Under the pieces are notes generated by a model. The model was not told the DNA's origin, made no database searches, and was given only the letters and a program-made list of their open reading frames with translations. Both the position numbers and the translations under genes were made by a program. This document shows, in pieces, positions 6,113 through 55,051 of a stretch of DNA of 64,000 nucleotides (position 1 is the first letter of the stretch; every line of letters begins with the position of its first letter). The DNA is from Pirellulales bacterium (GTDB taxonomy: Bacteria > Planctomycetota > Planctomycetia > Pirellulales > Thermoguttaceae), in assembly GCA_963845975.1 (NCBI GenBank), contig CAWJUD010000002.1, positions 781,646-845,645 of the forward strand, written 5' to 3'.

Positions 6113-8283
6113 ATGAATCTCAACGCCGCCCAACTCGATGCCGTCCACGCGCTTTCCGGCCCGTTGCTAGTGCTTGCCGGGGCAGGAACGGGAAAAACAA
6201 GGGTCGTAACTTATCGCATTGCCGAACTGATCCGCAGCAGGGTTCGGCCTGAACGCGTGTTGGCCGTCACTTTTACCAATAAAGCCGCCGACGAAATGCA
6301 AGAGCGCTCGGCCGCCCTGCTGGGCAAAGGCCTTAAGCAGCGCCCGGAGATCTCCACTTTTCATTCGCTTTGCGTGCGGATATTGCGCCGGCAGATTCGG
6401 CATCTGGGCTATCCCGCACAGTTCGCCATATACGACCGGGGCGATCAGGAAGGCGTCGCCCGGGGCGTGCTCAGGGAAATCAAGGCGGCAGAGGCCCTGT
6501 TGCGGCCCGGCGACCTGCTGTATTGTGTCAGCCGTTGGAAAAACACCGGCATCCGACCCGAGCAAGCCGCCAACCTGGCTCAAACCGACAAGGAACATCT
6601 TGCCGCCACGGCCTATCGCCGATACCAAAACACGCTAAAAGCGGCCGGGGCATTGGATTTCGACGACCTTCTGCTTTTCACCGAAGATCTTTTTTCCCAG
6701 TTCCCCAAAATCCGCCGGGCCGAGGCCGACCGCTTCGATCATCTCCTGGTGGATGAATATCAGGACACCAACGGCAGCCAGTATCGAATCATTAAAGCCC
6801 TGGCCGCCAAACATAGAAATATTTGCGTGGTGGGCGACGACGATCAATCGATTTACGGCTGGCGCGGGGCGGAATTGACCCACATTCTCGGCTTTAAAAA
6901 CGATTGGCCCGAGGCAAAGATCGTGCGCCTGGAAATGAATTACCGCTCAACCAGGGAGATTGTCGGCTGGGCGAACCGGCTTATCGCCTTCAATAAACTA
7001 CGCCACGACAAGGTCCTGCGAGCCATGATAAGCGGCGAGACTCCGCGAATTTTGCAGCTCCAAGACGAAACGGCGGAAGCAAAAACGGTTGTCGATGAAA
7101 TAGCCGCCCGGATTCTTGCCCATAAACGCAGGCCCCGCGATTTCGCCCTGCTCTGCCGCACGAACGAGCAACCACGGGCCTTCGAGACCGAACTAAGGCG
7201 GGCGAAGATCCCCTATGTCCTTCTCGGTGGCATGTCGTTTTACGACCGCAAGGAAGTCCGAGACGTGCTGGCATACTTGAAATTGCTGGCCAATCCGGCA
7301 GACGAAATCTCGCTTTTACGCATCATCAACACGCCGCATCGGGGAATCGGCCGGCGCGCCGTTGAACGCCTGTTGGAAGAAGCCGTCGGCAAGAGTCAGA
7401 CCATTTGGAACATATTGCCGCGGCGGGGCAATTGGATAATCTATCTCCGCTGGCGGTCGAGGCCGTGCAAAAATTCCGCGGCCTTATCGAGCGCTATCAC
7501 AAACAAGCCGACTCTGCAGGAAAAGCCCGCACGGCGCCCGCCAACCACTGGTGGGTCTTGTCAAAGAACTATTGCAGGAAATCGGTTATAAACAAGAACT
7601 AGCCCGGCAATACCCCGACGCCGGAGATCAAGAGTCGCGTTGGGCGAGCGTCGAGGAATTGGTCAATGCCTTGGGATCGTACTCGCGGCGTTCGTCGCCG
7701 GCCACGCTGGCCGGATTCCTGCACGAGGCGGCCCTGGCCGGCAACGAGCCAGATCGCGACAGACAATCGCAACTCGATCGCGACGCCGTAGCGCTTATGA
7801 CGCTTCATGCCGCCAAGGGTTTGGAGTTTACCGAAGTTTACATGGTCGGCATGGAAGAAGGCCTGCTGCCCCATCACCGCTCGGTGGCCGGCGGCGGCTC
7901 GGCCCTGGACGAAGAACGCCGCCTGTGCTACGTGGGAGTTACCCGCGCCAAGCGCCGCCTGACGCTTACCATGGCCTTAAGCCGCAACAAATGGGGCAAG
8001 CCCCGGCCGACAGTCCCCAGCCGTTTCCTTTTTGAAATCACCGGCCAAGCTGATAATCCAAAATATCTGGAAATCAAACGAAAAATACATCAGCCCCATG
8101 CGGCAACAACCTCAAAAAAGAGCGAAATCAGGGCAAAAAAACCGCCGCTTTCAACCCGATCTCCTTCCGGCAGTCGGCGAAATCCATCATCCAAAAGGTC
8201 TGATCGTGGGGCGTAAAACGATCGGCGATCATTCGTTCGGTGTTGCTTTTGATGCCGGCAAAACATATATTAAGGGACTCTAA
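6113..8283 (+). pseudogene. uvrD: UvrD/PcrA-family ATP-dependent DNA helicase interrupted by three frameshifts (near 7400, 7540 and 8130)
   Basis: Walker A GAGTGKT at N-terminus; UvrD-like sequence continues through frames 2, 1, 0, 1 (ORFs 6113-7591, 7405-7602, 7551-8216, 8032-8283); last frame carries the C-terminal Tudor-like VGEIHHPKGLIVG motif. Confidence 0.75.
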
Positions 8284-8623: not shown

Positions 8624-9179
8624 TCTTTTAGAAGCAGCTCTTGAGATCCAAAATTTCCTTCTCGATCGCCAATGGCGATTCTGCATCATCGGCGGTTTGG
8701 CGGCGGTGCGCTGGGGTGAACCTCGCGCCACACAAGACGTGGATATTAGTCTTTTAACCGGTTTCGGCGATGAATGTTGCTACATCGAGCCGATACTCTG
8801 CCGTTTTCATCCCCGCATCAAAAACGCGGAAGAGTTTGCTTTGGAAAATCGGGTGTTACTCATAAAGTCCTCCAACCAAGTTCCGATTGACATCGGCTTG
8901 GCTGGAATTCCTTTCGAGGAAAAAGTGATCGCACGCGCTTCGCCATTCGCCTTTTCCAATGATGCAGTGTTGATCACCTGCTCGGCTGAAGATCTCATCG
9001 TGCTAAAGGCCTTTGCTGGGCGAGAACGGGATTGGACTGCGATTCAAGGGATTTTGATTGCTCAGGGAAACCGGCTTGATTGGAACTATATCATAGAGCA
9101 ATTAACGCCTTTGTGCGAATTAAAAGAAGATCCTGAAGCTCTCAACCGTCTAGAAAGACTTCGTCAATCTTCCGGATAA
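8616..9179 (+). CDS. Nucleotidyltransferase-fold protein (AbiEii/MNT-like GG..R.T.DVDI motif)
   Basis: IIGGLAAVRWGEPRATQDVDISLL matches the pol-beta superfamily GG/GS...R...D.D pattern. Confidence 0.5.
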   Translation: MIDLLEAALEIQNFLLDRQWRFCIIGGLAAVRWGEPRATQDVDISLLTGFGDECCYIEPILCRFHPRIKNAEEFALENRVLLIKSSNQVPIDIGLAGIPFEEKVIARASPFAFSNDAVLITCSAEDLIVLKAFAGRERDWTAIQGILIAQGNRLDWNYIIEQLTPLCELKEDPEALNRLERLRQSSG

Positions 9180-9432
9180 AAAAAGGCACATTCCGGTTCC
9201 GTGATTAACACAATCTTTCCGGAATCGAACTTTTTCCTGAAATCCGATCTATCTAAGGCTATGTGTCTCCACAAAAGCTATTGCCCCATTTTATCCATTT
9301 TTATTGTTTTAACAATTGCACACTAGAATTAATGTAGCTCTAGAATTGGAATTTCGCTACACTCCCTTACCACCAACTCCCCAGTTGCCGAAATTCTCCG
9401 GTCACAGGAATATAGTAGTTTAAAATCCGCGC

Positions 9433-38250: not shown

Positions 38251-39405
38251 TTGCCTGCGCGGACCACTATTGACGCGGATTGGTCTCAACGAATTCAAAC
38301 GCTGCTACGGATAGATCTGGATTGGACATTTCTAATCTCGATGGCATACCGGCACAAGCTCATACCGCTCTTGTATCGGCACCTCAGTAGAATAGGCGCC
38401 GGAATTGTTCCTAAGGACATACTTGATCAACTACGAACCTATTTCCAGAAGAACGTTTGCCGCAGTCTTCTTCTCACTCGTGAACTTCTCAGACTACTCA
38501 AGCTCTTTGAAGAGCACAACATTCCCGCCGTTCCTCTTAAAGGACCGGTGCTGGCGGAAACGGTCTACGGCAATGCTTCGTTTCGGCAGTTCGTAGATCT
38601 GGACATCCTCGTCCATAGGAATGATGCCTTGACGGCCAAGAATCTACTAGCTTCACAAGGCTACCTTCCGCTGGACTCCCAGACTGACGCCGAGGCCGCC
38701 GACACTCTTGGATTGGTACCGGAGCATCACTTTTCTTGCATGCGTGACAGCCAGGTTTTCATCGAGCTTCACTGGAGGAGCGATCCGCCCTTGTTTTCCT
38801 TGTCCCTCGAGTCCGAATACTTGTGGGAACGCCTTGTGCCAATACCGTTTGCCGGCACGAAAGTGCTCGGCTTTCCCTCGACGGATCTGCTCTACATGCT
38901 CTGCGAGCACGGGGCCAGGCACTGCTGGCAACAATTGAGCTTAATCTGCGATGTGGCCGAACTCGTTCGTGATCCGCTATGTATAAATTGGAAACAGGTC
39001 TTGGAGCAAGCGAAAAAGACGGGCGGTCAGCGGATACTCTTTCTCGGCCTTTTTATGGCATGGGATCTCCTGGGAGCAGCCCTTCCGGAAAAGGTATTAC
39101 GCATGACACAGACCGACCCTATGGTAAAAGTTATTGCCAGGAAGGTGTACAAAGGATTTCTTCAGGAGAATTACGCCCCCCAGGGCCCTGTGGAAACGCT
39201 GCTTTTTTGGATCAAGGTGAGGGAACGCTTGAGTGATCAAATCCGAATGTGTATCCTTGCATTGGCCCCTGGCATATACGATCGATCCTTTGTGACATTA
39301 CCAAAGTCGTTGTCTTTCCTCTATTACTTGATCCGGCCGATCCGGTTATTTTGGCAGTATGAACTTGGCCCGTTGAGAAGTTACCTTAAGACGTTACTTT
39401 CGTAA
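38251..39405 (+). CDS. Uncharacterised-family nucleotidyltransferase (NTP_transf_5-like), RiPP-cluster associated
   Basis: 384 aa; PLKGPVLAE...FVDLDILVH nucleotidyltransferase motif; convergent with the maturase operon. Confidence 0.6.
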   Translation: MPARTTIDADWSQRIQTLLRIDLDWTFLISMAYRHKLIPLLYRHLSRIGAGIVPKDILDQLRTYFQKNVCRSLLLTRELLRLLKLFEEHNIPAVPLKGPVLAETVYGNASFRQFVDLDILVHRNDALTAKNLLASQGYLPLDSQTDAEAADTLGLVPEHHFSCMRDSQVFIELHWRSDPPLFSLSLESEYLWERLVPIPFAGTKVLGFPSTDLLYMLCEHGARHCWQQLSLICDVAELVRDPLCINWKQVLEQAKKTGGQRILFLGLFMAWDLLGAALPEKVLRMTQTDPMVKVIARKVYKGFLQENYAPQGPVETLLFWIKVRERLSDQIRMCILALAPGIYDRSFVTLPKSLSFLYYLIRPIRLFWQYELGPLRSYLKTLLS

Positions 39406-39505: not shown

Positions 39506-39997
39506 CTAGCGCTCACCGATGTCATGTCTCCATTGCTGCAGCCGCCGTAGCGCCACTCTTCCACTTCGCCATATCCGACCAGCCGGCCGGAGCAGCCATA
39601 AACTCCAAGGCGCACAGCGCATCCATATCAATATGGCAAGACGCCACGCGCCGCAATCGAAGACACGGACGCGCCCTCTGTGGTAGGAAACAATTGCCTT
39701 GCCCAAAACGTCGCGTTGGGTAAACGGTCCCTCGGAATCTCGCTGCGAGTCGCCGCGTAGAAAGAACTCGTCGCCGTCGATTTTTACGACGCGGTGTAAA
39801 ACGTAGCAATCTTCCAGATGACACACAAGGATCATGTCGCCAAACGACGGCCGAGAGCGCATTGATTCAAGTTCCACCACGTCGCCGTCGTAAATGAATG
39901 GCTCCATGCTCCTGCCGGTGACGGTCAGGCGCACGCGCTGGCCGCGCTCCAGTGCAGCGCGAATGACGGGCATCAGTTCGCGGCTGGGGACATTCAT
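39506..39997 (-). CDS. S24/S26 (LexA/signal-peptidase-like) serine peptidase, candidate leader peptidase
   Basis: TVTGRSMEPFIYDGDVV...LHRVV...VLGKAIV; paralogue of 51234-51821; start overlaps the upstream maturase stop. Confidence 0.6.
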   Translation of the reverse strand: MNVPSRELMPVIRAALERGQRVRLTVTGRSMEPFIYDGDVVELESMRSRPSFGDMILVCHLEDCYVLHRVVKIDGDEFFLRGDSQRDSEGPFTQRDVLGKAIVSYHRGRVRVFDCGAWRLAILIWMRCAPWSLWLLRPAGRIWRSGRVALRRLQQWRHDIGER

Positions 39998-42171
39998 AGC
40001 ACCGACCTCACGAGCGAAACCACCTCGGGCTCCGGGCGGCAGCGGAGGCGATAGACCGGCACACGCGCCAGAATCGCGTCGAGGTTTGCCATTGCACGCT
40101 GCATGAGCGCTCGATCCCAGTAAGGCAGAAACGCACGGGCGAGCAGCAACGGCGCAGAGGCGGAGGGGGAGAGCCGGTGGATTTCATTCTCAGGCGCTTG
40201 TTCCAGCAGGATGAGAGCGAAGAGCGGCGCACGATAATTGAGGGCTATGTTGGCGGTGCCGGCCCAAGGCGTGCCGTAGCACTCCGCACCGCTGGCTTTC
40301 GGTCGTACGGCGATCCGGTCGTCGTTCATCGCAATCACGCCGGCGAACTGACTCCACAAGCTCGCTTGTGTGCTCTTGCCCACACCGGAGTGTCCGACAA
40401 AGACTATGCCGCGCCCGTTGTCGTCAATTCCGGAGGCGTGGAAAAACAGGCCGTCCGTCAAAAGTATCTTGGTGCGCAGAATCAGATCACCTGCCCAGAA
40501 GTTAAGCAGACTCATCCAGGTTGGGCCGTCCCGCTGTTCGGTCAGTGTCAGGTCGTCCCACGCGGCGTTGGCCCGCAGCACTCCTTGCACGTTTTCGCTC
40601 TTATAACTGAATGCGGAGTAGTACGCCTGGGCCTCACGATACATCCGCCAGATGGAGCCCGGACTGTAGATCAATTCACCGTATGGGGATGGCGCTCGAG
40701 TGCTCTCTTCCCAGTCAAGCGACAGTCGCGCAATTGGATCCTCCGGCGCACCAACAAAAGAGCCAAACCACTTTTCGATTCCCATATCAGCGGCCGAAAG
40801 TGGACTATGCACCTCGATCAGAATATCGGCGATAGTAATAGGGATGTTATGCTGGCTGCTCATAATAATTCTTTGCGCCCGAGCTATTTGACACAGATAC
40901 GGTACTGGTTCGGTCAGTGTGTTTGTTTCTGTCAGCGACCATCCCGGGCAGCGCTTGCAGTAGACTCGCGCATCGCAGGAAAGACAAACGGATGCGATGC
41001 GCAACGAATCAACATATTCCTTCACTTGTTCCCATGCCACCGCGAAGCCGACCTCCAAGGGCTTGGCAGCAGGTCGCGGCAGGGATAGACAAGCATTTAT
41101 TTCTCCCGCTGGATTGATGGCAAAGTGCGCTTTACCGCATAGGCAGTGGAAATTGTAGTCACCGGCTGTGGCGTATCCCATGAGTGTGACATCGCTCCAT
41201 TCGTCGGCGGAGATACGATCAGTCGATTCAAGTTTGATACAGTCCTGTACAGACAGGCGGCATTTCTCAACCTCGGAAGGGGTGCCGTCGGGCCGCTTAC
41301 CGAGCAGCCAGTTCCCTGAAAAAGGCACACCCCAGTTGTGCGCCATCTGTCGCATCGCTTCCAGTTCGCCCACATTTTGTCGAGTGATAGTGATCTTCAA
41401 TTCTAGAGGCACGCGGCGCTTGATGAGTGATTCGATCCCGGCGCAACAGTGTGTGTAACTGCCGATCACGCCGGTAACTGCCTCGTAGGTGGCGGCTGTC
41501 GCGCCGTAAAGGGTTATAGTAGTGCAGTTGGGCGGAGCTTGGGCAAGGCGCTCTGCTACTGCCTCACTGATGAGCGTGCCATTGGTGCGGACAGCGATCA
41601 GCAACCCCAAGCGGGTGAGCGGCTCAAAGATTTCAAAAAAGTCGGGCCGCAAAAAGACCTCACCTCCAGTGAGGATCAAGAAGAGCATGCCATGACCCAC
41701 TGCTTGGTTGGCCAGAGACAACCATGCTGCCGCCGGCAGTTCCTTTGCCCGTCGCGCTACGTCATCAGCCGGATGCCGTACGGCGCACATTCGGCAAGCG
41801 AGGTTGCAGCGGGTAGTCAGCTCAAAACTGGCGCTGATAGGCTGACGGCGATCACTGGCGCGCCTGAAAAGTTCATCCGTCAGTGGACCATATTGGGTGG
41901 GAAGCGTGCTCATGCCAAAAGACCCATGCGCAAGTTCGTCCACAAAATTCCGAACATCGACGGCTGCATGTTCTACATCCACATCAAACCGCTCTGCCAT
42001 GCTGTTTGCCAGATAGTCTGCGGAACATTCTTCTGCAAGGAGGGACCAGATAAAGCACCCCGTGTTATTCAGAATCACCATGCCGTTGAGATCCATGACC
42101 CGTGATCCCAGAGGCACCAGCAGATTCTCACCGCTTATATTATGCAGCAGAAGATCATCATTGCGTTTCAT
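39994..42171 (-). CDS. Tri-domain fusion: PqqD-like RRE + radical SAM/SPASM peptide maturase + HprK-related kinase domain
   Basis: N-terminal LLVPLGSRVMDLNGMVILNNTGCFIW (PqqD-like); CNLACRMC radical SAM cluster with SPASM cysteines (CLCGKAHFAINPAGEINAC...CLSCDARVYCKRCPGW); C-terminal GIVFVGHSGVGKSTQASLW P-loop resembling the HPr kinase C-domain. Confidence 0.75.
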   Translation of the reverse strand: MKRNDDLLLHNISGENLLVPLGSRVMDLNGMVILNNTGCFIWSLLAEECSADYLANSMAERFDVDVEHAAVDVRNFVDELAHGSFGMSTLPTQYGPLTDELFRRASDRRQPISASFELTTRCNLACRMCAVRHPADDVARRAKELPAAAWLSLANQAVGHGMLFLILTGGEVFLRPDFFEIFEPLTRLGLLIAVRTNGTLISEAVAERLAQAPPNCTTITLYGATAATYEAVTGVIGSYTHCCAGIESLIKRRVPLELKITITRQNVGELEAMRQMAHNWGVPFSGNWLLGKRPDGTPSEVEKCRLSVQDCIKLESTDRISADEWSDVTLMGYATAGDYNFHCLCGKAHFAINPAGEINACLSLPRPAAKPLEVGFAVAWEQVKEYVDSLRIASVCLSCDARVYCKRCPGWSLTETNTLTEPVPYLCQIARAQRIIMSSQHNIPITIADILIEVHSPLSAADMGIEKWFGSFVGAPEDPIARLSLDWEESTRAPSPYGELIYSPGSIWRMYREAQAYYSAFSYKSENVQGVLRANAAWDDLTLTEQRDGPTWMSLLNFWAGDLILRTKILLTDGLFFHASGIDDNGRGIVFVGHSGVGKSTQASLWSQFAGVIAMNDDRIAVRPKASGAECYGTPWAGTANIALNYRAPLFALILLEQAPENEIHRLSPSASAPLLLARAFLPYWDRALMQRAMANLDAILARVPVYRLRCRPEPEVVSLVRSVL

Positions 42172-42483
42172 GTTATCTCCAAGTTGTTAGTGTTTCTGCA
42201 ATCGTATGGCCACTTCAAACACCGCGACTCCAACGTGGGATTACAATAGTTGTAGATTTGCTCAGCATGGGTTAGTTGCCATGGTAACGAGTTTAGAAGT
42301 CATGTAAACAATTTTATGCAGTCTTTTAATCAATACTTGATTGAAGATACGAACGAACCATATAAAATTAGACCGTTTTCACCGAAAACATCAATAATCT
42401 CATGCCGGTTATCAACCCAAATAAACGCCAGCAAAGAGTTTCTTCTCCATCTTAAGGGAGGTTTCCTATATCTCGATATCACG

Positions 42484-42627
42484 GTGGATGGGGTCAATCA
42501 GGTTGATAACTAGCAAAAAGTCTCTCTTCTATCCTGAGAGGAACAAAGGTTGCCTTGGGCGGCTCATAGGGCTGTTTGGGGCTCGGCTGCTCTTCATTTT
42601 GCTGGATGACTTCTTTTGGATCATCCG
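42484..42627 (-). CDS. 47-aa Pro/Glu-rich peptide sharing an ATGA junction with the upstream PqqD-like gene; candidate precursor
   Basis: MKNPDDPKEVIQQNEEQPSPKQPYEPPKATFVPLRIEERLFASYQPD; ATG overlaps the upstream stop (acATGAaaa); SD-like aaggga 10 nt upstream; below the 60-aa ORF-track cutoff. Confidence 0.4.
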
Positions 42628-42920
42628 GGTTTTTCATGTTTGTTTCCCTTTCAGTTGAGTTATGTGTAGACTCAGTTCGCTCGCATTGGCGAGGAGGTTG
42701 GTGAAAGCGCGGTCGACTTCCGTTACGAAGTCATCCACAGTGTGCTCCCGTACATCCTCTTCCACACGGCTATGCCCATAGGGTTGATTCCTACTACGGA
42801 GTCGCACCTGTAAGGATTAAACAAGACAGCACAATCGTCGAACTCTTCCCTCAGCACCACCAACGGATTAGCCAACGGTTTTTCAGACTTACTTGTTTGC
42901 ATAACAGAATCCTGATTCAA
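42624..42920 (-). CDS. PqqD-family peptide chaperone (RRE), with a 1-nt deletion frameshift relative to its degenerate paralogue at about 52.5 kb
   Basis: NPLVVLREEFDDCAVLFNPYRCDSVVGINPMGIAVW PqqD pattern; C-terminal part continues in the -1 frame (VDDFVTEVDRAFTNLLANASEL) up to the TGA that overlaps the next ATG. Confidence 0.55.
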
Positions 42921-43112
42921 TAATTGGGGTCACCCCGAAGAGAACCGACGTTAGTCGCGGCTTACAAACACTGCCTCCATGACTAGAGCCAGAAAGACGA
43001 TTAGAAATCTATCATGTCTATAGGAAATGTATATAACCCGGTACAAAACAATGTAGTTATTTTGAAAATAAGCCTGTTGGGGGGGGGCTCTCGAAGAATT
43101 GGCCCAATCGGG

Positions 43113-43412
43113 TTAGGGGCTGATTATGTGTACCGGAATCTGCAGTTCCCATGTACAGGTACGAGTATGTGTACTTCTATGCCGACAACACTCGCCATGA
43201 CCGGCTCGCTTGTCCACCCACTCTGGGCTCCTCTTGTAATGTTTTGCCTTGGTCAATTCGTCTGCCTTGGCCTCCAACAACGTATTGAGCATCTCTTCCA
43301 CCGAGTCCCACACCAAATTGCCCAGGTAGTTCGTTACCTCCTCTTCTTCCTCATTTACCTTATACAATCCCGAAAACTTCTTACATCTGGCATTTTCTGT
43401 CACACTGCTCAT
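43113..43412 (-). CDS. Hypothetical acidic protein with Cys/His/Thr-rich C-terminus (GHGECCRHRSTHTRTCTW)
   Basis: ORF only; possible second precursor type. Confidence 0.3.
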   Translation of the reverse strand: MSSVTENARCKKFSGLYKVNEEEEEVTNYLGNLVWDSVEEMLNTLLEAKADELTKAKHYKRSPEWVDKRAGHGECCRHRSTHTRTCTWELQIPVHIISP

Positions 43413-43774
43413 GGCAGTCTCTTCTGTTGGTAAAGGTTGAGTTTTATTAACATTTTTGTGCGCATGTTTACTATTGGTATTTTTTTGGTATCATTGGATA
43501 TTATAAATCGCTATTTTTAAAGGGAGCTTTCAACCTCGGATTCGGCAACTTCACCGCAACCTTAATATATGTAAGGCGATTTGGTGAATGACATAGCAAT
43601 GCGTATCTTAACCGGTCCGTAGGTTAAGCACTTACCACATTTGTTTTGTCCGCCTTCCGAATGGTTTGTTTTTCAAAAAACACATTAGTGACCGTACTTG
43701 GTTTGTGCGCTTAACTATCTGCCATCTACTATGAGCTATTCGGTTGCGACTGTTAGGCCGCACTAGGATTTTCC

Positions 43775-45589
43775 ATGTCCATCAAAGAAGGTTATCGCAC
43801 AGTTCTGGGCGCATTGCACATTGGTCCCGCCCTCCGTTTAGTCTGGCAGGGATGTCCCGGTTGGACCGTGGCAAGCGTCCTGCTCCTGATCGTACAAGGG
43901 ACGCTGCCGCTTGTGGCGCTTTACGTTCTCAAATTGATCGTTGATGCGGTGGCGGGCGGCCTCCAAGGGGGTGCAGGCGAACACGGATTCGGGCAAGCAG
44001 CCTTCTTGATCGGCATCGCGGGCTTTGTCGCTATTGTCGCGGCTGCCTGCCAGTCTCTGGCGATGCTAGTAGACGAAGCCCAGACGCAAGCCGTTTCCGA
44101 CCACCTGCATCACATTCTCCACGCCAAGTCCGTGGAAATCGATCTCGAGTACTACGAGGATCCGCAGTTTCACGACACATTGCATCGAACCCAGTTCGAG
44201 GCATTTTTCCGGGCCTCGCACATCTTCAGAACGCTATTGCAGTTGGGACAAAACGGGATTTCGCTGGTGGCGATGGTCGTTCTAATCATTTTGTGTCACT
44301 GGCTGGTTGCCGCACTTTTGTTCTTGGCAGCCCTCCCCCTTGCCTTCGTTTATCTGCGGTATGCCAACAAGCTCTATCAATGGCGCCGTGATCGCACTTC
44401 CACCGAACGCCAGGCGACCTACCTACACTGGCTGCTAACCAGGAGCGAACCCGCTAAAGAACTTCGACTTTTTTCCCTGGGTAATCTGTTCATGGAACGG
44501 TTCCGGGAGCTGCGCAAACAGCTCCGCGAAGAAAAAATCCATATTGTTATGGCACGTTCGGTGACGGAGTTGGTCACCCAAATCGGCGCTGCCCTGGGTA
44601 TTATCGGGGCCTATGCGTTTGTGACGTATCGTGCCTTTCAAGGTTTTATGACACTTGGCGATCTGGTGATGTATTTTCAGGCATGCCAGCGGGCACAAGG
44701 TTTTTTCCAACAGTTGCTGAGCGGTTTCAGCAGTCTCTACGAGGACAATCTGTTTCTCGCGGACTTATGCGACTTCTTTGCCCTGAAGCGCAAGGTTCTT
44801 GAGCCTGGTCACCCGAAACCCATGCCCAAGCAAATGGAGACTGGGATCGTATTTGAGGGGGTCGGCTTCCGCTATCCAAACAGCACGAAAGTGGTGCTCA
44901 ACGACATCAATCTGACAATCCGTCCTGGAGAAATTGTGGCGCTGGTCGGCGAGAACGGGGCGGGTAAAACAACGTTGATCAAGCTTCTCTGCCGATTGTA
45001 TGATCCGACTAGCGGCAGTATTCGGCTCGATGGAATCGATCTGCGCCAGTTCCGGACTATTGATCTACGGCGCGACATCAGCGTCGTATTTCAGGACTAC
45101 ATGCAGTACTACACCACCGCGCGGGAAAACATCTGGTTTGGCAATACCGATTTGCCATGCGATCAGGAACGAATTGCAGTTGCGGCGCGGCAGGCCGGCG
45201 CCGACCGCGTGATCGCCAAGTTGCCTCGCGGCTATGACACGATCCTGGGAAAATTGTTCGACACAGGAGAAGAATTAAGCACCGGCGAATGGCAGAAGCT
45301 CGCCCTTGCGAGGGCGTTTCTCCGCGACGCCCAGATCGTCGTGCTGGATGAGCCGACAAGTGCCATGGGAGCCAGGGCCGAATTGCAGGTCTTCAATAAG
45401 TTCCGCCGGCTGATCGAAGGCCGCACGGCAATCCTGATCAGTCATCGGTTTTCGACCGTCCGGATTGCAGACCGGATCTTTGTGCTCGACGAGGGGAGAA
45501 TCATCGAATCTGGCAACCATGAAGAATTAATAGCCCGGGGGGGAACCTATGCTCGACTCTTTGAAATCCAAGCACAATCTTACAGATGA
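43775..45589 (+). CDS. ABC transporter, fused permease/ATP-binding exporter
   Basis: Six N-terminal TM helices; Walker A GENGAGKTTL, signature LSTGEWQKLALARAF, Walker B IVVLDEPTSAMG. Confidence 0.85.
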   Translation: MSIKEGYRTVLGALHIGPALRLVWQGCPGWTVASVLLLIVQGTLPLVALYVLKLIVDAVAGGLQGGAGEHGFGQAAFLIGIAGFVAIVAAACQSLAMLVDEAQTQAVSDHLHHILHAKSVEIDLEYYEDPQFHDTLHRTQFEAFFRASHIFRTLLQLGQNGISLVAMVVLIILCHWLVAALLFLAALPLAFVYLRYANKLYQWRRDRTSTERQATYLHWLLTRSEPAKELRLFSLGNLFMERFRELRKQLREEKIHIVMARSVTELVTQIGAALGIIGAYAFVTYRAFQGFMTLGDLVMYFQACQRAQGFFQQLLSGFSSLYEDNLFLADLCDFFALKRKVLEPGHPKPMPKQMETGIVFEGVGFRYPNSTKVVLNDINLTIRPGEIVALVGENGAGKTTLIKLLCRLYDPTSGSIRLDGIDLRQFRTIDLRRDISVVFQDYMQYYTTARENIWFGNTDLPCDQERIAVAARQAGADRVIAKLPRGYDTILGKLFDTGEELSTGEWQKLALARAFLRDAQIVVLDEPTSAMGARAELQVFNKFRRLIEGRTAILISHRFSTVRIADRIFVLDEGRIIESGNHEELIARGGTYARLFEIQAQSYR

Positions 45590-46219: not shown

Positions 46220-47198
46220 TCAAGCATTAATTATGGTCTTCATGAGAACATCGACGGTCTGGTCCAAAGGGCCGGGATGTAATTCGTAGCACTCGGCCTT
46301 GCGCAGGGCCGCCCCTAAGGTCGACATGGATCGATAGGCTCGGGCTGGATCGGCGATCATGTTATTGAGCGAGAGCAGCATTGCGGCGGTGATGGCCCGG
46401 GCGCGAGGCATCGGTTCTAATCTGGGCGCGTCTTCGAATCCGCCGAGGAAAAAAAAGTACCGCAGATTACATGGCGAGCCTATTTCGACATCATCAGCAT
46501 GGAGAATGTGAACTCCCAATGAATCATCATAGGCGTTTCGGATTTTGTGTAGCATCTTGTCGTCTATGCAGCCCTCGATCAACGGCAAACTTTCCGGACG
46601 AACCGAGATCGACTTGGGCAAAGGGACCATCCGGTACAACTCCTTGTGGAACACAGTGACATCGTCGGAGAAATATCGAAAGCCCTGGCCCAGTAGTCCC
46701 AGCGTCAGCGTTGTTTTGCCCCGCATTGTTGGCCCCGCCAGCGCCACGCCCTGCCCATTCCATGATAGTCCGGCAGCGTGCAGTAGTTCGTGAGACTGCA
46801 CTTTTGAGAAGCAGAATGGCGAATACTTGCGTTCGGCATAGATTGTAGAGCGATTCGATGGCAAGGATATAGATATTTGCGAGGCCTTCGGAAAAGATGG
46901 CAAGATACGGTTCGCCATCACCGCTGATAAGCATGAAGATGGGAACACTGTTGGCTCGGTTCTCCGTCTTCAGACTTCCGTAAATGGCATCGAGACATCG
47001 GATGACAACACGGTCGTTGGTCTTGACACGGACGAACACGTCCAACAACCGATAGGTTCGTTCCAACTCCTCCTGCCACTTCATGTTCTGGAGTTCCTGC
47101 ACCACCCCAGATACTATCTCCCTATCCGATAGCCTTTTGCATAGCGACATGCCGTCTAGACGCAGCATCTCAGAGACCAACTGTGGTGATTGCATCAT
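46220..47198 (-). CDS. HprK-related serine kinase (stand-alone); one frameshift near 46920
   Basis: GVALAGPTMRGKTTLTLGLLGQGFRYFSDD matches the HPr kinase C-domain P-loop (GxxGxGKS/T...ADD); ATGATG start at 47198 overlaps the last 30 nt of the B12-rSAM gene. Confidence 0.65.
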
Positions 47199-48552
47199 TG
47201 TTCTCCAACAGAAGATTCCACTTCGCCAAGAAATTCGAGTCTTCGAAACGCCAGTAGGGGGCAAAAACCTTGGGATGATCTTTGATCAATTGCAGCATCT
47301 CCGCGCTTCCATTGTTCAGGGCCATCATCGATCCGTCGCCGCGGCATACGAAGCGGACCTTTGCCGCCGCCTCGTCGAAGAGAATGCTGTCTTTGTACTC
47401 CGCGTACAGCGGCGAATTCGGCATCGGCATCAGGTGGTTGAACGCGAGTATCATCGAGCACTTGCCCTCCGCCGCCTGGGAAATGTAAAAGACAAGGAAC
47501 ATGGTCTCCTTGAATTCGATTAACGTTTCGAAGGGAAATCCCCACATCAGGAAAAGTTTGATGGTTTTGAAATGCGACATCGATTGAACGATGGTGTGGG
47601 TGGCCTCCTTGATGCTGAATCCCTTGTGAAGTATCTTCAGGACCGAATCAGACCCGGACTCCAGCCCGTAGCCGATTGCAGTGCAACCCGTTGCAGTCAT
47701 GCACCTTAGCAGCTCCTCGTCCATTAGATCCACGCGTCCCAAGCAGCTCCACTCGCTGCCGGGGGCCGCCCGTTGCAGTCCTTCGCAGAATTGTTGCACT
47801 CGCTGTTTTGATAGCACGAATGTATCGTCATGGATACTGAACTCTTTCTTCCCAAACTCGTGGTACAACAAATGAACTTCCCGGAGGACGTTATCCATGT
47901 CTCGATAACGAGCCCGGCGCCCCCAGTATGTGGATATATCGCAGAACGTACAATTGTGCGGGCAACCCCGGGTTGTTAGAATGCTCGCCCTTTCATATTT
48001 TTCGAGATCCAGAAGTTGATAGGCGGGAAAGGGCCGATGGTCGAGGTCGGAGATCAATTCCCGCGCCGGCGCGGTCCACGCGGAACCATCTTCCTTTCGC
48101 ACTATCACCCCCTTGACGCGACCGCATTCTCCCGGCGCGGACTCCAGGTAATGCATCAGTTCAACAATCGTGTCGTCAGCCTCTCCGCGAACAACCACGT
48201 CGATCCAGGGAAAAGATTCGATGATCGCCTCCGCGACGCCGGACGGTCCCGCCCCGCCGAGCACGAAAACCTTGTGCGGATCGAGCTGCTTCACCTTTTT
48301 CGTAGCGAGGATGACCACCGGCAGCATGTCGTACATGCACCCGATCCCGACTACGTCCGCACAACCGGAGAGAAACGAGACAAACGTATCGACGTCAAAG
48401 GGATTCTCGTATGGGTAGGTCTGGTAGTCCTTGAAGTCCACCTTATAACCGCTTTGTACAAGCGAGGTCGCTATGTGCAAGGGCCCCAAAGGAATGAAGT
48501 GTTTTTTCGGATCAATACGGTCATACGCGGCAACGATTGATATATCGCTCAT
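47170..48552 (-). CDS. B12-binding-domain radical SAM enzyme
   Basis: N-terminal cobalamin-binding Rossmann region followed by TTRGCPHNCTFCD CxxxCxxC. Confidence 0.8.
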   Translation of the reverse strand: MSDISIVAAYDRIDPKKHFIPLGPLHIATSLVQSGYKVDFKDYQTYPYENPFDVDTFVSFLSGCADVVGIGCMYDMLPVVILATKKVKQLDPHKVFVLGGAGPSGVAEAIIESFPWIDVVVRGEADDTIVELMHYLESAPGECGRVKGVIVRKEDGSAWTAPARELISDLDHRPFPAYQLLDLEKYERASILTTRGCPHNCTFCDISTYWGRRARYRDMDNVLREVHLLYHEFGKKEFSIHDDTFVLSKQRVQQFCEGLQRAAPGSEWSCLGRVDLMDEELLRCMTATGCTAIGYGLESGSDSVLKILHKGFSIKEATHTIVQSMSHFKTIKLFLMWGFPFETLIEFKETMFLVFYISQAAEGKCSMILAFNHLMPMPNSPLYAEYKDSILFDEAAAKVRFVCRGDGSMMALNNGSAEMLQLIKDHPKVFAPYWRFEDSNFLAKWNLLLENNDAITTVGL

Positions 48553-48572
48553 AGTTGCACTTGGGATAAATT

Positions 48573-48857
48573 CTAGGAATCGCCTGCGCTGCAACGCCCG
48601 ATCAGTTGCTTGGCCTCTAGCTGCCGGATCAGATCTTCAACGTCCGTTGAAATCGCAACCGCGTCCCCCTGATAGGACGAACAGAGCCCGTTCACGATTT
48701 CGGCGACTGTCCTTTTCCCGTCCAGAAGTCTCCATATACTTGCCGCGATTCGATTAAGCACGGATACTTTGCGGCCCTGGGAATCATACAAAATGACCTC
48801 GTCCTCAAGGTCCTGGCAAGCCACATTAGCATTGTGTTGGTAAATGCCATCGAGCAT
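48573..48857 (-). CDS. PqqD-family peptide chaperone (RRE)
   Basis: VILYDSQGRKVSVLNRIAASIWRLLDGKRTVAEIV...DVEDLIRQLEAKQLI. Confidence 0.7.
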   Translation of the reverse strand: MLDGIYQHNANVACQDLEDEVILYDSQGRKVSVLNRIAASIWRLLDGKRTVAEIVNGLCSSYQGDAVAISTDVEDLIRQLEAKQLIGRCSAGDS

Positions 48858-48921: not shown

Positions 48922-49980
48922 TCAGTATAAAAAAGGTACGGCATGTTCCCGAAATCCCCGGGATTTCCGCGAACGCGCAACGATCTCTTCCCGAAGGTGA
49001 TTGATCATCACCGTGGCCGCACATGCAAGCTCTCGACGCCTGGTTTCCGATCCAAGGCGATCGCACAGAGATTGCAAAACCTCCGGGCGAGAGAGCATGG
49101 CCATGCACAGTTCGCATTTAGTGACGCAATTGGTCGGTTTCTCCAGGATCACGCCGCTTCCCTCGAGTTCTTGTAACAAGCCGGCAGGGCCGCCGAGTCG
49201 AAGAATGTTCAGCAGAGGCGACCTGTCTGCCTTGTGCAATATCTCCACTAAGGAAGAACGCTTGGCGTTTCCCAGGATCAAAGGGCTGTCCGGGGTAAAA
49301 GCCAGATAAGGCCCGCAACAAGCGACCACCGTGCCGTCGGGGAGCACGTTTGGCACGAAGGAAACGAAGCAGCCGGAATTCGGGGCATGTGTAGACGTTA
49401 TCATCTCGGATCGCGGAATGGACTTGGCGCGGCCGAATGGAACCACCGGCTGATCGCCGAGGGGAACGCGCTCCTCGGATAAGACGCTGTGGATCTGTTC
49501 CGCCACCGGATCGTCGCGAAGCACCGAAAGATTGACTATAACGTGAATGTCGTTCTTCTTGCAGGCCCTCACGGCGTTCAGAACATTTTCCATCGGCACA
49601 AACTGCACATGAAATTGATCGGTGCTGATGGCAATCATTTTGACGCCACGTTGCTTCAGCATGGCCGTGGTATCTATAGCTTCGCCGAGAGTCCGCGCCC
49701 AATAGGTGTCGGTCTGAACGACCGGTCGCAGGCCGCAATCTCGCGACATTTCCACCAGGTGCAGTACGTCGTCGGGAAACAGCATGGGTTCGCCGCCGGT
49801 GATCCATAACACGCGAAACCCTGCCTTTGCAGCCTCCTCCACGGTCTTTTCTGCCAGAGGCATTGGCATGACTTCAGAACGTTCCGGACCACATTCGAAG
49901 ACGCAATGTCCACATCGAGCATTGCACTTAGACGTATATACCAAACAAAGAATCGCAGGTAATCTTTCTGCAGTCTTCAC
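48922..49980 (-). CDS. Radical SAM/SPASM-domain peptide maturase
   Basis: YTSKCNARCGHC CxxxCxxC; C-terminal SPASM cysteines (CCGPY...CVTKCELCMAM); GTG start. Confidence 0.8.
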   Translation of the reverse strand: MKTAERLPAILCLVYTSKCNARCGHCVFECGPERSEVMPMPLAEKTVEEAAKAGFRVLWITGGEPMLFPDDVLHLVEMSRDCGLRPVVQTDTYWARTLGEAIDTTAMLKQRGVKMIAISTDQFHVQFVPMENVLNAVRACKKNDIHVIVNLSVLRDDPVAEQIHSVLSEERVPLGDQPVVPFGRAKSIPRSEMITSTHAPNSGCFVSFVPNVLPDGTVVACCGPYLAFTPDSPLILGNAKRSSLVEILHKADRSPLLNILRLGGPAGLLQELEGSGVILEKPTNCVTKCELCMAMLSRPEVLQSLCDRLGSETRRRELACAATVMINHLREEIVARSRKSRGFREHAVPFLY

Positions 49981-50218: not shown

Positions 50219-50374
50219 CTAGCTGGTGTAAGTAATTGGTCCAGGGAGGGTGAATATTTGATTTTCAGGGTCAAATTTCGCCGCCACCTTTACCTTCCCC
50301 AGGACTTCATTCTCATCGTACTCCGTGATTTGAGGCTTTTCCCATATCTGCATGTCTATCTTTTCCATATTCAT
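50219..50374 (-). CDS. Precursor peptide A (51 aa)
   Basis: MNMEKIDMQIWEKPQITEYDENEVLGKVKVAAKFDPENQIFTLPGPITYTS; leader shared with copies B and C, divergent core, ITYTS tail; the 87-aa track ORF is an over-extension. Confidence 0.6.
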   Translation of the reverse strand: MNMEKIDMQIWEKPQITEYDENEVLGKVKVAAKFDPENQIFTLPGPITYTS

Positions 50375-50388
50375 AAACCCATACCTTT

Positions 50389-50535
50389 CTACTTCACAAT
50401 CTGTGCCGTCATAAGCACTGGCATGACCTCCGAACGCTCCGGAACACATTCCCAAATGCAATGTCCACATCGAGCATTGCACTTAGACGTGTATACCAAA
50501 CAAAGAAGCGCTGGTAATCTTTCTACAGTCCTCAC
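50389..50535 (-). pseudogene. Duplicated 5' fragment (48 codons then stop) of the radical SAM/SPASM gene
   Basis: VRTVERLPALLCLVYTSKCNARCGHCIWEC... is about 85% nt-identical to 49840-49980, including the upstream region. Confidence 0.6.
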
Positions 50536-51087: not shown

Positions 51088-51237
51088 CTAGCTAGTATAA
51101 GTAATTGAGCCGGCAACTGTCCAAGTTTGACCTTCAGGGTCAAATTGCGCCGCCACCTTTACCTTCCCCAGGACTTCATTCTCATCGTACTCCGTGATCT
51201 GGGGCTTTTCCCAAATCTGCATGTCGGTCGTGTTCAT
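51088..51237 (-). CDS. Precursor peptide C (49 aa)
   Basis: MNTTDMQIWEKPQITEYDENEVLGKVKVAAQFDPEGQTWTVAGSITYTS; ATG overlaps the TGA of the upstream peptidase gene (ATGA). Confidence 0.6.
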   Translation of the reverse strand: MNTTDMQIWEKPQITEYDENEVLGKVKVAAQFDPEGQTWTVAGSITYTS

Positions 51238-51821
51238 AAATCACCTAAACCTTTCTTAAAGTGCCGGAAGGCAGAAACGAAAGTCAGAACCTTTAAACAA
51301 AATTGAAGCACGCCAATGGATACCACACGTAAGCATCGAAATATCGTTCTCGTGATGAGGTTGTGATTGTTAGGCCAGATCCATTCCTTGACGCTCCTTG
51401 CCAGCCGGTAAAAATACCACATTACATATCCATATAGTCCTAAAAACCGATTCACTATTGTCCAGTGCAAGGTCTCGTAATGATGCCGCGATGCGGTATT
51501 CTGCACAACGATCACTTTTCCTAGCACTGCCCCTATATCGAGTTTTCTATACACAAAGGAATTGTCGCCCTTCTCCAGAAGACGATCTCCTTGCCGCCCG
51601 ACAAATCGATGGACGACCAGATGTCCATGTTCCTCGAATACAAGTATGTCTCCGATCGTCAACTTATCGGCTTGTAACGATCTTACGATCAGATTGTCGC
51701 CGGGACGAATAATAGGCGACATGCTTGTACCCATCGATTCGAATGTTGCCTCACCATGGTGGCGAAGGCGCATCTGCGCCACAAGTACTGCCAAGTCTTG
51801 TTCCTTACGATCTCCCGCCAT
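51234..51821 (-). CDS. S24/S26-like serine peptidase, paralogue of 39506-39997; candidate leader peptidase
   Basis: ESMGTSMSPIIRPGDNLIV...GDILVF...HLVVHRFV...VLGKVIVV; stop overlaps precursor C start. Confidence 0.6.
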   Translation of the reverse strand: MAGDRKEQDLAVLVAQMRLRHHGEATFESMGTSMSPIIRPGDNLIVRSLQADKLTIGDILVFEEHGHLVVHRFVGRQGDRLLEKGDNSFVYRKLDIGAVLGKVIVVQNTASRHHYETLHWTIVNRFLGLYGYVMWYFYRLARSVKEWIWPNNHNLITRTIFRCLRVVSIGVLQFCLKVLTFVSAFRHFKKGLGDL

Positions 51822-52419: not shown

Positions 52420-52692
52420 CCGACAGCCGCGTTTGGCGGAGATATCGGCGGAGGCGCGCTCGGCTACCGTTACGAAGTCATCCATGCTGTACTTACCGTA
52501 CACAAGCTACCACACTGCTATTCCAATAGGGTTGATCCCCACTGCGTCGCTCGAGTCGGGATTGAACAAAGGCTCCTCCCTCAGTACCACCAAGGGATTA
52601 GCCGCTGGTTTTTCGGATTTCCTCGTTTTCATAGAAATGCAGACTATATTTTCCATTAATCCCCCGACGCCGCCAATTGACCGCCTCCACAT
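52420..52692 (-). pseudogene. Degenerate second copy of the PqqD-like gene (premature TAG and internal deletion)
   Basis: MKTRKSEKPAANPLVVLREEPLFNPDSSDAVGINPIGIAVW* aligns with 42624-42920 at nt level, including flanks. Confidence 0.5.
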
Positions 52693-53321
52693 GATGTAAA
52701 TTTATGAAGGCCCTTCCGAATTGGTCGACATCGGCCTGAAAAACCAGTCTGATTCCAGAATAGACGCTTGCGGTCCTCACCACGAATAAAATTATTTTTA
52801 GCCGCCGAATACAAACGCTGCCTCCACGACCGGAGCCAGGAGAATTCACAATGTATTTAATTTATTGCATCCTCAGGGAATGTCAATAAAAAACTAGAAC
52901 GAAATCACCACAAATATAGCAAAAAACCTCCGGTCGGGGGATAAAACTGCCGAAGAACTAACCCAAACAGGTTAAGGCTGGATCATGTTTGCTGAGATGG
53001 TGTGTGACCTGTCCATAAGCGTGCGACATAGATGGCTATGCCGACAACACGCATGGTTACCGGCTGATTATAGGATTCGCCGCGCTTCCCGATGAAAACC
53101 AAGACTTTATGCTCGGGATCATTCGGCGTCGGTCTTGTTGATTAGACTAGCATCTTTTTCATTAAGAGCTTCTAACAAAATGACGTGTGCCACTGCTGGC
53201 TTGCAAGCAGTGCCGGGAAAAGCACCAGAAAAACGCTGCTGGCAAGCCGGGCACCGACCGAAGGTTGGTCGTGGCACGCAACTTGCCCTTTTAACTTCAT
53301 TTTGTTAGACGCTCTAAGCCA

Positions 53322-53661: not shown

Positions 53662-53748
53662 GGATGGGTGGCCGAGTGGTCTAAGGCGGCAGTCTTGAAA
53701 ACTGCTGTGGGCGTGAGTCCACCGGGGGTTCGAATCCCTCCCCATCCG
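53662..53748 (+). tRNA. tRNA-Ser (anticodon UGA)
   Basis: Acceptor GGATGGG/CCCATCC, anticodon stem GCAGT/ACTGC with loop CTTGAAA (U33-UGA-A37), long variable arm, T arm GGGGG-TTCGAAT-CCCTC, discriminator G. Confidence 0.85.
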
Positions 53749-55051
53749 TTTTTGAGAAACATGAAGCAAGATTGTATTCTTTCGTATCTTTTCGTAAGTC
53801 TTTATTAGGGTTCGTTTTTGCCGCGTTTTTCTCGACCTGATAAGAATCACCCTTAACCGCCTCTAACGATCTATTACTGTGGATTACGTGCGCCGCGCTC
53901 GTAGGATTTTGCGTTACTTGCTGTGGCGTAACTGCCGCCCGAAAATGATCGTCTACAGTACGCGCATAGTGAGCTAAGGCAATTTTTGGTGAGTGTCCAA
54001 GCCACTTAGCAACAGTCTGAATAGGAAAGCGTTCAAGCAAATCTGTTTCACTACTGGCCCTCAACCCGTGGAAAGGTTTTGGCCACGGTCGCAAACCCGC
54101 ACGTCGAATGATCTTTTCAAAGCTTGTTCGCAAGTTACTATTTCGCCACCCGGCTTTAGAATCCGCTTGGGAACGGTGCTTACTAATAACGTATATCGCG
54201 CCGTCTTTCGCCATATCGAAAGCCTCTTGCAGCGGTCCAACTAATTCTGGAAACAGCGGAATAACGCGCTGGCCACCATTGGGATAGTGCTCTGTCTTAG
54301 GGCTGATAACAGTAATCCGTTGCCTGTTCCAGTCAATATGTTCCCACTTAAGCGATAACACTTCACTCGGGCAACGTAGCCCACCAAAACGAGACAAGGT
54401 CACGATCACCCGCCATTCGGTATCAGGGCAGGCGTCTAACACACTCTCTATATCCGCCTTTGAAACGTAGACGTTCCGGCTTTCATCTACAACGGCGGCT
54501 ACTTGTACATCATTAAATGGATTCTCTTGAATTACCCCGCGCCGAACCATTGCATTGAAAAACATTTTAGCCGCCTGTAGACGCTTGCGGACAGTGTAAA
54601 GGGCTAACCCTTGACCGATCAATGCCTGTTTATAATCTTCGGTCTGAGTACGGGTAATTTGTTGGACAAGTCGATCCGCTCCAAAATACTCAATTAGGCT
54701 GCGTTCACCTTGTTTCCACACAGTCTTACTGGCAGGCTTTACATCTTGCCGCTTGTCGATGTAGTCGGCAATGAAGGCCCCTAGTGTCACTAGTTCCCGT
54801 TTAGGCACTAAACCAACGGCCGCAAGTTTAGTGTGTAATGCATCTGTGATTTTACGCAACCAAGCAGCGGTATCACTGTCGATGTTATCGCCCGACTCGG
54901 CCGCGATTAAAAGACGTTCGATATATCCCTTAACTGTTTGGGCTTGTCTGAGGGGCAACCGTTTCCCTAGATAAATCGTCACTCGTTTCCCGTTTGGGGC
55001 TGTAAATTGGATTCGCTTACCGCCACTTTTGTCTAGGTTTAATGAAGACAT
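53681..55051 (-). CDS. Tyrosine-type site-specific integrase; 3' end of ORF runs into tRNA-Ser antisense
   Basis: C-terminal catalytic region FHGLRASSET...LGHSPKIALAHYAR (R, H..R, H, Y); last about 25 codons (KTDGEGFEPP...) translate the tRNA T-arm antisense. Confidence 0.85.
   Translation of the reverse strand: MSSLNLDKSGGKRIQFTAPNGKRVTIYLGKRLPLRQAQTVKGYIERLLIAAESGDNIDSDTAAWLRKITDALHTKLAAVGLVPKRELVTLGAFIADYIDKRQDVKPASKTVWKQGERSLIEYFGADRLVQQITRTQTEDYKQALIGQGLALYTVRKRLQAAKMFFNAMVRRGVIQENPFNDVQVAAVVDESRNVYVSKADIESVLDACPDTEWRVIVTLSRFGGLRCPSEVLSLKWEHIDWNRQRITVISPKTEHYPNGGQRVIPLFPELVGPLQEAFDMAKDGAIYVISKHRSQADSKAGWRNSNLRTSFEKIIRRAGLRPWPKPFHGLRASSETDLLERFPIQTVAKWLGHSPKIALAHYARTVDDHFRAAVTPQQVTQNPTSAAHVIHSNRSLEAVKGDSYQVEKNAAKTNPNKDLRKDTKEYNLASCFSKTDGEGFEPPVDSRPQQFSRLPP

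Follow-up and report, generated by a model that had tools for sequence, protein, structure and literature searches.

We analysed a 64,000-nucleotide (nt) stretch of Pirellulales bacterium DNA (GenBank contig CAWJUD010000002.1, positions 781,646 to 845,645), hereafter the window, focusing on a 47-codon open reading frame (ORF) on its minus strand. The contig is 2.58 Mb long, and the host, judged by the proteins that share its EF-G cluster (90% identity grouping), is a Thermoguttaceae-type planctomycete. This ORF lies between a frameshifted PqqD-like reading frame and a large gene for a radical S-adenosylmethionine (radical SAM) enzyme with a SPASM domain. A preliminary description made from the sequence alone had noted an ATGA overlap between the PqqD-like frame and the peptide, and had proposed that the peptide may be the precursor for a fusion maturase. 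Homology indicates that the peptide is real; it is most likely unable to give the usual product of its family. The PqqD-like gene beside it is a broken remnant, and a single base decides whether the maturase is a fusion. The features on which these statements depend are listed here by window coordinates.

42494..42637, minus strand: 47-residue ORF, member of the precursor-peptide family of a PqqD-radical SAM/ScmC-like cassette (family hidden Markov model, HMM; identical ORF in the Logan contig L001)
42518..42571, minus strand: leader motif PYEPPKATFVPLRIEERL, conserved in about 120 homologues from more than 10 phyla
42497..42517, minus strand: tail FASYQPD, with no Cys and no C-terminal Ser, the shortest of 121 family members
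42638..42654, minus strand: conserved 5' untranslated region (UTR) and ribosome-binding region of the peptide, CTGAAAGGGAAACAAAC; also found between the tandem peptide genes in locus L035
42172..42493, minus strand: spacer of 322 nt between peptide and maturase genes (comparison with contig L086, RNA folding)
39994..42171, minus strand: 725-residue fusion of a PqqD-type RiPP recognition element (RRE; residues 18-81), a radical SAM/SPASM region (about 105-440) and a ScmC/HprK-like P-loop domain (about 450-725), assigned by domain matches
42634..42901, minus strand: ScmD-type PqqD pseudogene, copy 1 (frameshift, truncation, substitutions, comparison with ScmD)
52435..52632, minus strand: ScmD-type PqqD pseudogene, copy 2 (in-frame TAG, two deletions, no peptide after it)
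43022..43206, minus strand: portion of a non-coding region conserved upstream of the operon, matching L035 8772-8962

The translation of the ORF from 42637 to 42494, MKNPDDPKEVIQQNEEQPSPKQPYEPPKATFVPLRIEERLFASYQPD, is exactly the peptide quoted in the preliminary description. It consists of a variable N-terminus (residues 1-22), the leader motif (residues 23-40) and the tail FASYQPD (residues 41-47); the wider motif (K/R)xPYEPPKATFVPLKxEERL corresponds to residues 21-40. A word-based protein search with this peptide returned only the identical P0001 and one relative, P0002, which is encoded on contig L002, 112 nt upstream of PqqD and radical SAM genes. Relatives of the maturase turn up in over 570 genome matches, from Planctomycetota, Desulfobacterota, Chlorobiota, Acidobacteriota, Chloroflexota, Bacillota, an archaeon and others, and 80 genome loci from many phyla were retrieved from them with an alignment of the PqqD-radical SAM part. 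An HMM made from only two sequences, P0002 and the window peptide, detected a small ORF on the same strand directly upstream of the radical SAM gene in about 60 of these 80 loci, so that the conservation which the preliminary description had asked to be checked is indeed present. Some loci, L035, L008 and L044 among them, carry two or three tandem peptide copies.

The family was extended by 22 loci in metagenome contigs, found through a degenerate DNA pattern for PYEPPKATF[VI]P, and by 42 called peptides from a phmmer search of 1.84 billion representative proteins (E-value up to 0.001). A family HMM built without the window peptide scores it at 57 bits (E = 1.2e-16), and this score together with the homology rules out a chance ORF. 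On these sequence comparisons the 47-residue ORF genuinely belongs, by common descent, to an uncurated family of precursors of peptides that are synthesized ribosomally and modified post-translationally (RiPPs). Pfam and NCBIfam hold no model that matches these peptides, and the family HMM detects no second member in the 64 kb of the window at better than E = 0.6. Within the literature library searched, SynChlorMet, the Scm genes and HPr kinase combined with radical SAM or RiPP returned no description of the cassette or of these peptides.

The stop codon of the window ORF lies 322 nt upstream of the 725-residue gene on the same strand. The conserved neighbourhood of the family comprises one or more peptides, the PqqD-radical SAM/SPASM enzyme, a ScmC/HprK-like protein, an S24/S26 peptidase, an ATP-binding cassette (ABC) exporter and an NTP_transf_5 protein. 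At L057 (9121..9462) and L022 (923..1276) the PqqD/RRE of the cassette is a separate gene directly upstream of the peptide (order PqqD, peptide, radical SAM), indicating that gene order and the fusion state of the RRE vary within the family.

To describe what follows the leader, we compared the tails, defined as the residues after the motif, of 121 distinct family members. At least two Cys are present in 112 of them and a Cys occupies tail position 3 in 100; the median tail has 18 residues, 75 members end in Ser, and the typical pattern is xxC-x(5-10)-C...S. The terminal Ser is associated with the kinase-like gene: it occurs in 25 of 28 loci with this gene and in 4 of 23 loci without it (Fisher p = 4e-7, phylogeny not corrected for), the other endings in the latter group including ...CGLTE, ...CGPNR and ...NAAYQ. 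This co-occurrence has a counterpart in lasso-peptide clusters: the precursor's conserved C-terminal Ser is phosphorylated there by HPr-kinase homologues, and the phosphoserine is elaborated by a homologue of nucleotidyltransferases (PMC9266682).

From these results we infer how a typical member of the family would be processed. The radical SAM/SPASM enzyme encoded next to the peptide would bind the leader motif (K/R)xPYEPPKATFVPLKxEERL through its PqqD/RRE domain and would then modify the variable tail with its Cys pair, possibly by forming a thioether, as SkfB and AlbA do. The C-terminal Ser may be the target of the ScmC/HprK-like P-loop domain, often with NTP_transf_5 as well; the S24/S26 peptidase would cleave off the leader and the ABC transporter would export the product.

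The window peptide departs from the family pattern in both the Cys pair and the terminal Ser. Its tail FASYQPD has 0 Cys and is one of only three Cys-less tails among the 121, and its last residue is Asp, despite the kinase-like domain encoded at the locus. In an alignment with the L035 and L002 peptides, Ser43 (AGT) falls on the first Cys (TGT) of the relatives. Beyond the stop codon, CCATCCaCCgTGAT follows at an offset of 2 nt, exactly as it does behind the stop of L002; the alignment of the two 3' UTRs is weak alone, 41 of 1000 shuffles scoring as well, and gains weight only from the identical offset. The position of Ser43 and the shared sequence after the stop are most simply explained if the stretch of the tail with the Cys residues was lost by an internal deletion. 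Mosaic structure is a further feature of the gene: its 5' UTR and N-terminal leader have 89% DNA identity to the L035 peptide gene, while the radical SAM proteins of the two loci are 66% identical in their best aligned segment. The surrounding locus is rearranged: it carries an insertion sequence (IS) fragment and both copies of the ScmD pseudogene, and its exporter and nucleotidyltransferase genes lie on the opposite strand. Based on these sequence features, we consider the window peptide to be probably a core-deleted, non-productive allele in a rearranged locus, with a probability of about 0.6. The precursor role proposed in the preliminary description thus stands as far as homology to the precursors accompanying PqqD-radical SAM maturases is concerned; the window copy itself, without the Cys pair, is more likely a defective allele than a substrate for aromatic crosslinking.

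Several observations weigh against this reading. The closest relative is L086, a 1.1-kb metagenome contig (PqqD and radical SAM proteins 79-80% identical to those of the window). L086 encodes MERESQQTPEKTTQKQPYEPPKATFVPLKLEERLFASYVSK, a Cys-less EERLFASY form with the tail FASYVSK, and is the only close relative to share the Cys-less short form with the window peptide. Over the 24 codons shared by the two genes (KQPY...FASY) there are 8.5 synonymous and 2.5 non-synonymous differences, a ratio of non-synonymous to synonymous rates (dN/dS) of about 0.05, compared with about 0.27-0.29 for the enzyme genes (radical SAM about 0.27). Such a value indicates that the leader has been under purifying selection in both lineages and that the FASY start is not a one-off event, and it argues that the Cys-less peptides are kept under selection and are not decaying. 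Moreover, the radical SAM part of the maturase keeps every invariant Cys of the family alignment, and the maturase, peptidase, exporter and nucleotidyltransferase genes are all intact ORFs. Tails of the F[AGS]S type also occur elsewhere (P0266, P0289, P0299, L022, P0272, P0279), the beginning of P0289, FSSFQPVVPPNC..., resembling FASYQP of the window; they often lack a terminal Ser, so that the terminal Asp is less anomalous within this subtype.

The short FASY-type tail may accordingly be a functional, selected variant, either undergoing a non-Cys modification (at Phe41, Ser43 or Tyr44, or a PqqA-like Glu-Tyr link) or serving through its leader only as a ligand or regulator of the RRE-radical SAM enzyme. 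Besides the EERLFASY form common to two diverged loci with intact ORFs, the excess of synonymous differences, the intact downstream enzymes and the related tails of P0266, P0289, P0299 and L022, this explanation can draw on PqqE, which is among the closest solved relatives of the maturase. PqqE links Glu to Tyr. On the other hand, all the other F[AGS]S-type tails have two Cys further downstream, and the maturase shares 55-66% identity with enzymes whose own peptides have Cys-pair tails. The window and L086 tails diverge right after the Tyr (QPD versus VSK), and in the spacer only the distal ~140 nt are homologous to that of L086, the proximal ~180 nt being absent there, which fits independent or serial deletions. 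Leader conservation could in addition stem from gene conversion, given the mosaic with L035. Taking both sides together, we regard a functional short tail as possible but doubtful. The more specific proposal that the Cys-less peptide of the window and L086 is a selected substrate or ligand of the RRE-radical SAM-kinase fusion through cysteine-free chemistry (such as an aromatic or Glu-Tyr carbon-carbon link, or a modification of Ser43) is in our estimate unlikely; if true, it would mean that substrate chemistry has switched among closely related radical SAM enzymes of a single family. The crosslinks at F31, F41 and Y44 suggested in the preliminary description find no backing in the family: F31 is part of the leader motif (ATFVPL), F41 and Y44 are not conserved, and the hallmark of the tails is the Cys pair. 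No maturase family for aromatic crosslinks (triceptide type) is found among the 25 best NCBIfam matches of the maturase. One old truncation followed by continued selection and two recent truncations of a longer FASYQP...C...C tail are indistinguishable from the sequences at hand.

We also considered whether the tail continues past its stop codon. The two in-frame TGA codons after it (QPD-TGA-PHPP-TGA) could be read as selenocysteine, or be read through, with U-x4-U replacing the Cys pair; both stops are indeed TGA and spaced like a short Cys pair, and some family tails have a late pair (L022, L019). However, the homologous stop in L002 is TAG, followed by the same xHPP-TGA at the same offset, which makes the stretch a 3' UTR, and L086 likewise ends in TAG. 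No element resembling a selenocysteine insertion sequence, no other significant structure and no Rfam match was found downstream, the window has no tRNA-Sec, and other genes here normally end in TGA. We therefore give next to no credence to selenocysteine or read-through. Nor was a Cys-containing ORF found in the 322-nt spacer. No terminator or attenuator was detected after the peptide gene on the minus strand (spacer fold z = +0.45). The peptide's last five codons, together with the beginning of its 3' UTR, are bracketed by a 15-nt inverted repeat (42515-42501 / 42417-42403; 87% complementary, arms 83 nt apart), whose predicted hairpin improves only marginally on shuffled sequences (z = -1.7). 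A miniature transposon was rejected as the cause of the truncation because the repeat arms lie off the break point of the L086 homology.

The PqqD-like frame upstream of the peptide was described as ending, once a single-base deletion is corrected, in a TGA that overlaps the peptide's ATG, and this holds for the coordinates 42901..42634 and 42637..42494. The frame starts at the ATG at 42901 (MQTSKSEKPL...GIAVWKRMYG), is displaced by a single base past the GGG at 42748-42746 (about 42746/42745), and continues as (E)HTVDDFVTEVDRAF...ITQLKGKQT to the TGA at 42636-42634, which overlaps the ATG at 42637-42635. The repaired protein matches Pfam PqqD (PF05402) at E = 3.8e-5, scoring 24.4 against a gathering threshold of 23.4 on a frame that is shifted and C-terminally truncated. 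Its best NCBIfam match is ScmD, at 67.9 bits against a cut-off of 100, and it shares 50-60% identity with ScmD proteins from SynChlorMet cassettes of the canonical type.

A translationally coupled, functional pair of this gene and the peptide, with the frameshift as a sequencing error, would account for the ATGA overlap and for the position of the shift beside a GGG run, and discrete PqqD genes do lie directly upstream of the peptide in L057 and L022. The frameshift, however, recurs in a second assembly made independently (Logan contig L001, 99.9% identical), and even the repaired protein lacks the conserved ScmD C-terminal segment GF.G.EL and carries W24C (the Trp of FDDW) and D51Y (the Asp of MDG) at near-invariant positions. 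The junction itself belongs to the peptide: TGAAAGGGAAACAaACATGAAAAAC, which supplies the last codons and the stop of copy 1, is the region that precedes the peptide gene itself, and L035 has it again between its tandem peptide genes. The codons for LKGKQT and the TGA lie within CTGAAAGGGAAACAAAC-ATGA, and L035 has the same sequence with no PqqD gene before it. The ATGA results from ATG-AAA (Met-Lys), so that the overlap is a by-product without functional meaning, and translational coupling was rejected on these grounds. There is, further, no ScmD-type gene in the 80 homologous loci, where the other matches to the ScmD HMM, including the PqqD genes of L057 and L022, are the radical SAM enzyme's own RRE, fused or separate; and the window maturase carries an RRE of its own, its N-terminal PqqD domain scoring 48 bits with Pfam. 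We consider the coupled pair highly improbable. The PqqD-like gene is, judging from its sequence, a broken ScmD pseudogene truncated where the peptide 5' UTR begins and not the partner of the peptide, and the ATGA junction noted in the preliminary description is no sign of a gene pair.

The second copy of the pseudogene, 57% identical to the first at the protein level, was correctly described as a pseudogene that lacks the peptide: in addition to the in-frame TAG and the two deletions, no family-HMM match follows 52632..52435. Both copies are preceded by a non-coding region with about 70% identity to the region upstream of the L035 operon (8770..9185), which is from a Pirellulales genome. The counterpart at copy 2 (53067..52648) matches L035 8770-9185 over about 400 nt, while copy 1 keeps about 185 nt (43206..43022). 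In L035 this region directly precedes the first peptide gene, and it may comprise a promoter plus a long leader.

The maturase was characterized through its domain and structure matches. PqqE is its best match among solved structures and MftC its second-best NCBIfam match, with SkfB, AlbA, ScmE and ScmF also among the matches. The C-terminal domain is placed in the ScmC family through the homologue P0004, which carries PF27840 (ScmC), and it contains the P-loop GHSGVGKS, in which G156, H157, S158, G161 and K162 are invariant in the alignment. Its AlphaFold model (predicted local distance difference test 87) matches phosphoenolpyruvate carboxykinase (PEPCK) at E = 3e-8 and HprK/P at E = 1e-5, and the sequence gives weak matches to HprK_rel_B (35 bits) and Hpr_kinase_C (E = 0.02). 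The P-loop motif and the fold similarity together assign the domain to the HprK/P-PEPCK-like P-loop kinase fold, with a putative kinase activity.

The description of the maturase as a fusion depends on a single base. Contig L001 (ERR10755944) is 99.9% identical to window positions 40698-45073, with five differing positions, and the C at 40875 decides the architecture: the window encodes the 725-residue fusion, whereas in L001 a 436-residue radical SAM protein is encoded and the ScmC-like part has a gene of its own, which overlaps it. P0004 has its radical SAM/ScmC fusion at the identical junction, most close homologues are unfused, and in L086 and L002 even the junction between PqqD and radical SAM is split. 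A radical SAM-ScmC-like fusion is therefore plausible from the sequences but not secure. The differences between the two assemblies (44385, 41862, 41419-41418 and 40875) all lie inside GCGC in the window, and L001 has GTGC for GCGC twice, AATGCC for AGCGCC and GCG-AAA for GCGCAAA. Two causes are suggested by this pattern: deamination of 5-methylcytosine, or errors in the base calling of one assembly that are tied to a methylation motif.

The remaining genes around the operon are the following.

39506..39997, minus strand: S24/S26 (signal-peptidase-like) peptidase, candidate leader peptidase by its domain matches; overlaps the maturase gene
38251..39405, plus strand: NTP_transf_5 nucleotidyltransferase-fold protein (domain match), a frequent cassette member, convergent
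43775..45589, plus strand: ABC exporter with fused permease and ATPase (domain match), a frequent cassette member, divergent
43113..43412, minus strand: IS256/Mutator-family transposase fragment, between the exporter and the upstream region of the operon

Further along the window lies a second RiPP-type gene set on the coordinates 49980..48922 (YydG-like radical SAM), 48857..48573 (PqqD), 48594..47170 (B12-dependent type radical SAM, B12-rSAM) and 46948..46220 (weak HprK-like ORF). Between it and an S24-like peptidase gene (51821..51234) are two paralogous small ORFs on the minus strand, MNTTDMQIWEKPQITEYDENEVLGKVKVAAQFDPEGQTWTVAGSITYTS (51237..51088) and ...MNMEKIDMQIWEKPQITEYDENEVLGKVKVAAKFDPENQIFTLPGPITYTS (within 50482..50219), with conserved N-terminal and varying C-terminal parts, both ending in Ser. 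Neither has a Pfam match; from their sequence and position they look like candidate precursors of the second cassette. A duplicated 48-residue N-terminal fragment of the YydG-like gene (50535..50389, minus strand) indicates that this cassette is in part segmentally duplicated. A tRNA-Ser(UGA) gene (53662..53748, plus strand) adjoins a tyrosine-integrase ORF (55051..53681, minus strand), whose end it overlaps, and the DNA beyond them has a lower GC content (41-46%), which suggests an integrated element bordering the RiPP region.

Through these results, a widespread cassette related to SynChlorMet gains a precursor family, which is large and uncurated. The link between the terminal Ser and the HprK-like gene predicts that the products may combine a crosslink installed by the radical SAM enzyme with phospho- or nucleotidyl-tailoring of the C-terminal Ser, a tailoring so far described for lasso peptides.

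Among the nearest known systems is SynChlorMet (NCBIfam TIGR04248-04251: ScmD, the radical SAM/SPASM proteins ScmE and ScmF, and ScmC). The upstream pseudogene resembles ScmD as described above, the maturase matches ScmE and ScmF, its C-terminal domain belongs to the ScmC family PF27840, and an ABC exporter is adjacent. The window differs in having one radical SAM enzyme instead of two, an RRE fused to it instead of a separate ScmD, and an added S24/S26 peptidase and NTP_transf_5 protein; its scores fall far below the cut-offs (ScmE 84.1 and ScmF 86.4 against 400, ScmC 23 against 125, ScmD 67.9 against 100). A canonical SynChlorMet cassette is present in L084, with ScmD, two radical SAM genes, ScmC and an ABC transporter. 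Upstream of its ScmD lies a 115-residue Cys-rich repeat ORF (7470..7817, plus strand), whose leader KYESPILVPLG resembles the YExPxxxxVPL of the present family and which is, on its sequence, a possible SynChlorMet precursor. The precursors of the two systems would differ, those described here being short with one Cys pair.

The sactipeptide and ranthipeptide systems (AlbA, SkfB, CteB, PapB) have in common with the cassette an RRE-dependent radical SAM/SPASM enzyme and a small peptide with a conserved leader and a variable, Cys-containing core. The window peptide has no Cys and hence no donor for a Cys-to-carbon thioether, and the kinase-like domain, S26-type peptidase and NTP_transf_5 protein are atypical there. 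The lasso-peptide tailoring kinases PadeK, ThcoK and PsmK, together with the nucleotidyltransferase homologue PsmN, resemble the cassette in combining an HprK-like P-loop protein, with or without a nucleotidyltransferase, with precursors that have a conserved C-terminal Ser (PMC9266682). The window cassette has neither a lasso cyclase nor a B2 protease, its kinase-like domain is distantly related, and its peptide ends in Asp. The pathways of pyrroloquinoline quinone (PqqA/PqqD/PqqE) and mycofactocin (MftA/MftB/MftC), finally, likewise bring a PqqD-type RRE and a radical SAM/SPASM enzyme to act on a short ribosomal peptide, from which the window differs by scores far below the cut-offs, the absence of a PqqA or MftA signature and its other accessory genes.

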